A stretch of 51,651 nt of DNA from NCBI GenBank assembly GCA_040143965.1, contig JASJQH010000015.1, positions 1 through 51,651 of the forward strand, read 5' to 3'. This document shows positions 48,001 to 49,666 of this stretch, piece by piece (the stretch's first letter is position 1; the number at the start of each line of letters is the position of its first letter). The position numbers and the translations under genes were made by a program. Under the pieces are notes generated by a model. That model ran no database searches. It saw only the letters and a program-made list of their open reading frames with translations, and had not been told where the DNA came from. Origin of the DNA: Basidiobolus ranarum. Lineage: Eukaryota.

Positions 48001-49666
48001 TGAGGTGAAATTTAAATTCTCCGAGGGTGACGGAATTGCCGATATTCATATCCTTTTCACCACATAGTAGTTGTGATCTTATCCATCATTCATATTTATA
48101 TCCTTGACCCAGTAGCACTTCCCAAAGAGCCTCTAGAAGTTCATAAGATTGTCGAAGAGGCTATGATCCTTGCCAATAATTCCGTAGCCAAGAAGATATT
48201 TAGTACATTCAAGCATTCAGCTATGCTAAGAAGACATCCACCCCCAGTCGAAAGCCACTTTCGTCTGTTGAAGAAAGCGGCTGAAACAAGGGTAAGGGAT
48301 ATGCAGAATGAAGAGGTGTTCATGGATGGGAACTGACTATTTAACAGGGTTTGAAAATAGATACCTCAAGTAATGCTACCTTGGCAATATCCTTACAGGT
48401 GGCTCAAAAGAATCAACAGGACAAAGATTTCATCATTATGCTGAAGACCATGGCCACTATGGCGATGCAAGAGGCCGGGTGAGTATTTGATTATCAATCG
48501 TTTATGCAACTGTACCACTAAATCAACATTCTTGAATGCAGTTACATCTCTTCCGGGTCGTATGACATTACCGACTTCTATCACTTTGGCCTAGCTCTTG
48601 ATTTCTATACCCATTTCACTGTTAGACCAATGCTTCTGATTCTATTTCACACGAATATGCACTTATCCCCCTTTCTTTAGTCACCGATCCGTAGATACGC
48701 CGATCTGGTCGTCCATCGACAATTACTCGCTTCATTAGCGACTACAAAGACCAATTTCCCTCACAACTCAGTCGTAGACAGTAATAGTAGACTGAATGAA
48801 GTGGCAATCCATCTTAACTCCAAATCTCGGGAGGCTAAGTTTGCTTCAAAAGTATGTATATTAGTGTCAATACATTCCCACACGAAAACTTACCTCGTGC
48901 CAATGTTAGGATTCAGTCGAGCTGTTCCAGAGTCTCTATGTTATGCAGAAGGTAAGCTTATGAAAAGTAAAACGCATAACTATAGGTTCTAACCATTCTA
49001 CAGTCTAAAGCTGGCCCAATCTTGGAAAAGGGAATCATCAGTGAGATTCGTGATAATGGATTCTTTGTGTTCGTTCCAAGGTAAGTTTCTTTGAGAGGCT
49101 ATTACTATCCAAAGACTGTTGTACTAACCAGCATATATAGGTTCGGCATCAAAGGCCCCGTTTACTTGAAGGATAAAGAAGGACGTAATATTGTACCTCA
49201 GTCTCTGATCTCTGGTCTCCCCTCAGATGGTAATATCGAATTACTTATTGAATATATATTCTTTCTAACACCATGTCTAGATTCCACATATCTTCCTCGT
49301 TGTAACGTTGACTCTGACTCGACACGTATCTCAGTGGACATCGTAGATTCCTCCAAGACCATTCATTTCAACATCTTTGATCATGTTCAGGTCTGCTTGA
49401 AACTACACGAGTCTCGTGCACATCGACACACTGTTTATATGACCTTGGTTGGATTACTTAGTAATCATCAAGACAAACCAGTTCGAAAGTTAAATGATCA
49501 AGAACTTATGAGTGCTATCATAGATGGTGAGAAAAAAGGGCAGATCACTCACGAACCAGCTATTTCCAAAGATTCCAATGAAGCACAATTTCAACAAACT
49601 ACTAATAGTGTCTATGATCTTCTGGAATCATTTCATAATCTATCAACTGTAGAATTAAGAAATTGA
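45016..49666 (+). CDS. DIS3L: DIS3-like exoribonuclease 1 (RNase II/RNB family, degenerate PIN), about 20 or more introns
   Basis: [15 protein letters not shown]-like [20 protein letters not shown] catalytic [49 protein letters not shown]1 VPRFGIKG. Confidence 0.88.
48048..48118 (+). other. U12-type (minor spliceosome) AT-AC intron in DIS3L
   Basis: 5' site ATATCCTTT, branch TCCTTGAC at 48101-48108, 3' site CAC; removal restores ...[14 protein letters not shown]; the unspliced frame hits TAG. Confidence 0.9.

Follow-up and report, generated by a model that had tools for sequence, protein, structure and literature searches.

The window, by which we mean the whole stretch of DNA analysed here, comprises 51,651 nucleotides of a Basidiobolus ranarum contig (JASJQH010000015.1, positions 1 to 51,651). 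From ORF translations, we take it to carry beta-tubulin (10062-11492, plus strand), an ASCC3/Slh1-like helicase (11808-16866, minus strand), a DEAD-box helicase (29412-31466, plus strand), an ATM1-like ABC transporter (32439-34395, minus strand), eIF2B delta (35454-36856, plus strand) and topoisomerase II (37744-42876, plus strand). Positions 49800-51651 hold what are presumably degenerate copia-like retroelement remnants, with integrase-like frames on the plus strand and an RNase H-like frame on the minus strand, and these frames are interrupted by stops and frameshifts. Between topoisomerase II and the remnants lie the features that this study concerns:

43049..44600, minus strand: SKI7/HBS1L3-like gene with HBS1_N, a serine-rich middle and C-terminal exosome-binding-like motifs, no GTPase; 5' end approximate
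45016..49666, plus strand: DIS3L1 gene, 26 exons, 1051 aa, with degenerate PIN, CSD1, CSD2 and an RNB domain with intact active site
47960..48047, plus strand: exon 18, upstream of the intron; contains a rival GT donor at 48027
48048..48118, plus strand: almost certain U12-type AT-AC intron, 71 nt, phase 1, intron 18 of 25 in DIS3L1, splitting the Leu670 codon
48048..48057, plus strand: U12 5' splice site ATATCCTTTT, with a 7-bp pairing to the 5' end of U11 from the same genome
48065..48067, plus strand: in-frame TAG on retention; the protein would stop after residue 675
48099..48108, plus strand: branch site (TA)TCCTTGAC, in which A48107 is the predicted branch point; pairs, with one bulged base, to U12 from the same genome
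ending at 48112 and at 48115, plus strand: in-frame AG decoys near the 3' end of the intron
48117..48118, plus strand: 3' terminal AC, 11 nt after the branch A; the intron ends CAC
48119..48291, plus strand: exon 19, downstream of the intron, from sequence and protein mapping

The 25 introns of DIS3L1 comprise 24 GT-AG introns of 51-73 nt and one AT-AC intron, located in phase 1 after residue 669. A query made of exon 19 matched a 1051-aa Basidiobolus ranarum protein, identical over the query and named 'DIS3-like exonuclease 1' at its source. The RNB domain spans residues 477-816 and the junction, at residue 670, falls inside it; the host gene and domain named by the first-pass annotation (the RNB domain of DIS3L) were correct. 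Over its whole length the protein found its best solved structure match in human DIS3L (751.7 bits, PDB 9g8n), against 528.6 bits for human DIS3. It also clustered with animal DIS3L and separately from DIS3 and DIS3L2 in two trees (SH-aLRT 92 in the first; 96 for the opisthokont clade and 99 for the DIS3L side in the second), both being quick searches of hand-picked rows with SH-aLRT as the sole support measure. The DIS3L side of the tree takes in proteins from fungi, Amoebozoa, Ichthyophonus, Cyanophora and Selaginella. A metagenome scan for relatives gave 16 loci, of which the 12 placed in the tree did not group with the fungal proteins. In the PIN domain the acidic positions of the DIS3 motifs LQEV and NDRA, residues whose catalytic roles we assume, are replaced, and the catalytic motif of RNB is intact. 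A DIS3 gene apart from DIS3L1 and two DIS3L2-like genes are also present in the genome (contigs C304, C6881 and C629). The 996 codons of DIS3 form one uninterrupted frame and the DIS3L2-like genes are uninterrupted over RNB, while DIS3L1 has 25 introns.

The 71-nt AT-AC intron with a branch A 11 nt from its 3' end, as first described, was confirmed exactly in its signals. TCCTTGAC is located at 48101-48108, A48107 lies 11 nt before the last intron base, and the duplex of this element with B. ranarum U12 has an energy of -9.1 kcal/mol. The strict AT-AC pattern (ATATCCTT, 30-60 nt, TCCTTRAC, 4-14 nt, AC) was matched once in the window and in none of 300 dinucleotide shuffles, and a relaxed U12 pattern was matched four times in the window against a shuffle mean of 0.5. 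Candidates of the relaxed pattern at 32844, 44070 and minus 7245 were rejected as antisense to coding sequence, as was a weaker one at 13318, and a weak candidate at minus 37307 was rejected by eye as not being intron-like. The intron had been called the only U12 intron among the many in the window; the other donor-like sites proved to be antisense or to have no convincing branch site, and 48048-48118 is, as far as can be told, the sole convincing U12 candidate within the window. The branch site with its preceding A (48098-48108) also resembles a second ATATCCTT donor.

The donors and acceptors at the site combine into five in-frame junctions, which differ in the spacing that they leave between two anchors in the protein: 30 residues for AT-AC, 24 and 25 for the GT-AG options, and 31 and 32 for the AT-AG options. 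In the 107 intact homologs among 121 proteins, this spacing was 29 (n=1), 30 (n=65) or 31 (n=41), and the single residue that homologs have between D-I/L and P-K was reproduced only by the AC acceptor. If the major spliceosome removed a GT-AG intron (48027-48115 or 48027-48112) and left the U12 signals idle, the reading frame would be kept with both options and the intron would resemble the remaining 24 of the gene, which are all GT-AG. However, the spacing would then be only 24 or 25 residues, whereas all 107 intact homologs have 29-31; 5-6 residues would be deleted and the conserved D-I ahead of P-K lost. Furthermore, the donor GTGACG is unlike the other donors of DIS3L1, and an intron of 86-89 nt would be longer than any other in the gene. 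We find this explanation hardly credible. It is likewise very improbable that the minor donor is joined to the AG at 48115 or 48112, giving an AT-AG intron and one or two additional residues in the sole or a minor isoform. Both of these acceptors are in frame and the spacing of 31 obtained with 48115 is within the homolog range, but homologs hold one residue between D-I/L and P-K, and the two AGs end just 5 and 8 nt past the branch A, which is less than the usual U12 branch-to-acceptor distance. Thus, 48048-48118 is, with very high confidence, a real U12-type AT-AC intron, and the public protein model of B. ranarum DIS3L1 already uses its junction (48047/48119).

The B. ranarum genome is not devoid of minor snRNAs: all four were found, and the earlier inference that they are retained holds. 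U11 (84.6 bits, Rfam cut-off 39) and U6atac (66.3 bits, cut-off 33) scored above their cut-offs, and U12 and U4atac, both full-length and with correct pairings, scored 49.4 and 46.6 bits, 3.6 and 6.4 below a cut-off of 53. U4atac and U6atac can form an uninterrupted stem II of 13 bp and a stem I of 7 bp. The energy of the whole-length duplex was no better than that of shuffles in a crude test (251 of 500 as low), and hence the support for this pairing comes from the positioned stems only. Matches above cut-off were also obtained for the CENATAC (CCDC84) family and for the Ubiquitin_4 family (SNRNP25-type), the latter of which we take to be linked to SNRNP25. The strict patterns gave 61 AT-AC matches genome-wide against 4 in the reversed control, and 43 GT-AG matches against 1. 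After removal by eye of 6 duplicates and 6 matches in repeats, about 90 strict-consensus sites were left, a lower bound because the spacing was limited to 30-60 nt. Two U12-like introns lie about 1 kb apart on one strand (C80:9093-9164 and 10111-10183), with contig C6897 also listed, and such pairs suggest genes with more than one minor intron. In human cells, CENATAC is reported to serve AT-AN introns (PMC8280824).

The intron has the signals of its class, complementarity to snRNAs of its own genome and a protein that continues across the junction, and the machinery genes are there; we infer that the minor spliceosome carries out the splicing in vivo. In the mechanism that we propose, U11 would base-pair to the 5' site, and U12, leaving A48107 bulged out, to the branch site, after which U6atac would be brought in by U4atac, the AC 11 nt downstream would be joined, and the Leu670 codon within the RNB domain of DIS3L1 would be restored. 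In this view the U12-type AT-AC intron would be old and ordinary, a complete minor spliceosome would take it out, and it would persist by inheritance, without a special regulatory job.

Some observations speak against U12-type splicing: the scores of U12 and U4atac below their Rfam cut-offs, the whole-length duplex energy no better than that of shuffles, and the form of U6atac. The AAGGA box of U6atac is thought to pair with the 5' splice site. In the single U6atac found (contig C89; L001:1501-1634), GUCGA takes the place of the AAGGA of the Rfam consensus. Despite this, the minor donors of B. ranarum are canonical. A U6atac lacking AAGGA beside at least about 90 canonical minor introns would make a natural test of the need for that pairing. 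The need for pairing between U6atac and the 5' site has been raised as a puzzle before, in a paper that gives AAGGA for the U6atac of Rhizopus oryzae and Phycomyces (PMC2396436). A GUCGA-type U6atac in a fungus was not found in a literature search that reached few subscription papers. U12 (L002:1501-1648) has GGAUA against the consensus GGAAA, which matches the A before TCCTTGAC in intron 48048-48118. At 26 sites, from the fetched loci only (of 61 matches), the base before TCCTTRAC was A in 13, T in 11 and C in 2; co-variation of the branch site and U12 was considered, but 13 of 26 is too weak for a claim.

It had further been suggested that retention introduces an immediate TAG and that minor splicing could therefore be rate-limiting for cytoplasmic 3'-5' decay. 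An in-frame TAG is indeed reached when intron 18 is retained, and it truncates the RNB domain, but it is the seventh codon past the junction and not the first. The step from an early stop to a rate-limiting role is not supported, as retention gives a premature stop for 24 of the 25 DIS3L1 introns. In its full form, the suggestion is that a real intron acts as a regulatory valve, in which DIS3L1 is limited by the slow pace of minor splicing, transcripts that retain the intron are destroyed, and cytoplasmic 3'-5' decay is thereby linked to minor-spliceosome activity. The truncated RNB domain agrees with this, as do reports of slower U12 splicing with nuclear decay in human cells (PMC4066798) and of high basal retention of AT-AN introns (PMC8280824), the apparent keeping of the intron in Mucorales, where minor introns are few (PMC2846911), and the presence of a minor intron in human EXOSC1 (PMC6717393). 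Nevertheless, we consider the valve unlikely. The premature stop is common to nearly all introns of the gene, DIS3L had no match in the eight uncut supplementary files of a mouse/human minor-intron list (PMC6717393), and 37 of 37 Mortierellaceae models are untroubled at the site; with DIS3L off that list and these models intact, the intron looks dispensable. In addition, Rhizophagus is described as having no proliferation-linked minor splicing, which argues against a general regulatory role (PMC10639083).

The age of the ordinary intron that we favour can be approached through gene models that read into it. When the intron is read through, the first base of the split codon together with ATATCCTTT gives x-I-L-F/L, where x is N after A and H after C, and a GT donor would not yield N or H at this residue. 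Among 84 other fungal DIS3L1 models, 14 are broken at the junction: seven read D/E-I/M-N-I-L, that is, into an ATATCCTT-like start, four are without the upstream exon, and three, B. meristosporus included, are short by 17-18 residues. The prediction that standard gene predictors would mis-model this junction is therefore borne out in other fungi but not in B. ranarum itself, where the deposited model is correct. At nine other B. ranarum intron positions in RNB only 0-4 of the 84 models differ, a comparison valid for the conserved domain only, as 13-81 models differ in the variable regions outside RNB. Sorted by source name, the broken models fall in Mucoromycotina (13 of 41), with none in Mortierellaceae (0 of 37) or in animal or unnamed sources (0 of 36), and a Rhizopus stolonifer fragment has the same read-through. 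The metagenome loci were contiguous at the junction in 13 of 16 cases and unreadable there in 3. Judged from the protein models, an AT-AC intron very probably occupies the same codon in Mucorales and Endogonales. In a set of 145 new representatives, a single protein carries H-I-L-F at this offset (+23 from the G of G-A-L-E-L), along with an insertion of 13 residues; both it and its cluster mate come from the amoebozoan Balamuthia mandrillaris. Across 389 proteins totalling 342,481 residues, the tetrapeptide N/H-I-L-F/L occurred 10 times at the homologous site and in 23 other places. It is likely that Balamuthia, too, has an AT-AC intron at this codon; since its model reads into an ATATCCTT-like start, the intron is probably older than the split of fungi and amoebae.

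A minor intron in this genus is no surprise. B. meristosporus has been reported to have 249 minor introns, a share of 0.554% and the greatest density among fungi (Larue and Roy 2023, PMC10639083), or 237 together with a divergent U4atac (Olthof et al. 2024, PMC11347168), and we find about 90 sites in B. ranarum, so the proposal of a retained minor spliceosome was right but expected. Minor snRNAs and introns have also long been known in Rhizopus, Phycomyces and Lichtheimia (PMC2396436, PMC2846911, PMC4133162). B. ranarum had no match in the supplements that were searched. The B. meristosporus DIS3L model has 18 residues missing around the junction, and consequently catalogues built on annotation will probably have missed its orthologous intron. 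A minor intron in DIS3L was not found in a literature search covering little of the subscription literature and not the per-intron tables of PMC10639083; in the supplement of PMC2846911, DIS3L was not among the first 4 of 17 Phycomyces entries or 2 of 5 'oryzae' places, and it may be among the rest. While the intron itself changes little, as Basidiobolus is the published record holder among fungi for minor introns, the failure to recognise this one AT-AC intron has damaged a good many of the public DIS3L1 models, 14 of the 84 fungal ones here. Such damage may help to explain why DIS3L1 has been seen as animal-only, and it suggests that annotation-based counts of fungal minor introns are too low.

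It seems that the surroundings of the intron matter more than the intron itself. The SKI7-like gene stands head-to-head with DIS3L1, an arrangement in which one promoter region may serve both of these members of the cytoplasmic exosome pathway. Its HBS1_N domain was matched at E 1.2e-12. With RxxxFxxxL and PFDFxxxSPDD as reference motifs, its C-terminus contains PFKFNSPSPDD and a stretch that aligns with RxxxFxxxL but has no R; comparable C-terminal motifs have been described for human HBS1LV3 (PMC5389692). Only three PDB matches were obtained, to HBS1L isoform 2 and yeast Ski7, each of them weak (E 0.27-1.1), and a protein atlas search with the C-terminus gave no usable match. No GTPase P-loop motif was present in the window, and a separate HBS1_N gene with a GTPase is located on contig C200, where the C-terminal motifs were absent in the 6 kb examined. 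With the roles described in PMC11540850, DIS3L1 would be the catalytic subunit of a cytoplasmic exosome and its divergently oriented neighbour the likely bridging factor. Such a pairing of DIS3L1 and a stand-alone SKI7-like gene in a fungus would offer a microbial system in which to model the human-type cytoplasmic exosome.

The most far-reaching interpretation is that this would be a previously unlisted minor intron from before the split of fungi and amoebozoans. It would have stayed AT-AC in Basidiobolus, Mucorales, Endogonales and Balamuthia, whereas mammals and Mortierellaceae would have lost or converted it, and it would lie in an animal-type cytoplasmic exosome module, with DIS3L1 head-to-head to a stand-alone SKI7, in a fungus whose U6atac has lost AAGGA. 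We hold this combined reading tentatively, as a possibility with nearly as much for it as against it. If it is true, a dedicated cytoplasmic exosome, regarded as an invention of animals, is retained in early-diverging fungi, and it may be transcribed together with its adaptor and be subject to gating by minor splicing.

Compared with known systems, the host protein shares the degenerate PIN and intact RNB site with human DIS3L (PDB 9g8n), which serves the cytoplasmic exosome as its catalytic subunit (PMC11540850). Dis3L1 has been stated to be metazoa-only (PMC8097288) and called an animal paralog (PMC8894942), whereas here DIS3L1 occurs in a fungus beside a separate DIS3. Public databases already call such fungal proteins DIS3-like exonuclease 1, and work on fungal DIS3L1 was not found in a search of mainly open literature. 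The intron matches the donor and branch consensus of canonical U12 AT-AC introns of animals, plants, Rhizopus, Phycomyces and Rhizophagus (donor [G/A]TATCCTT, branch site TTCCTT[G/A]AC; 10.1101/2020.10.12.336362), except that it has A and not T before TCCTTGAC, which matches the U in its own U12. Its phase 1 fits the reported bias of minor introns away from phase 0 (PMC10639083). In B. meristosporus, of the same genus, the same signals and minor snRNAs are present, and U4atac is divergent and low-scoring in both species. The closest parallel to the U6atac is the CC variant ([GU]CCGA for AAGGA; Davila Lopez et al. 2008, PMC2396436), in which the box is likewise replaced by a motif with poor pairing to canonical U12 donors; in contrast to that variant, the box of B. 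ranarum is GUCGA and it occurs in a fungus.
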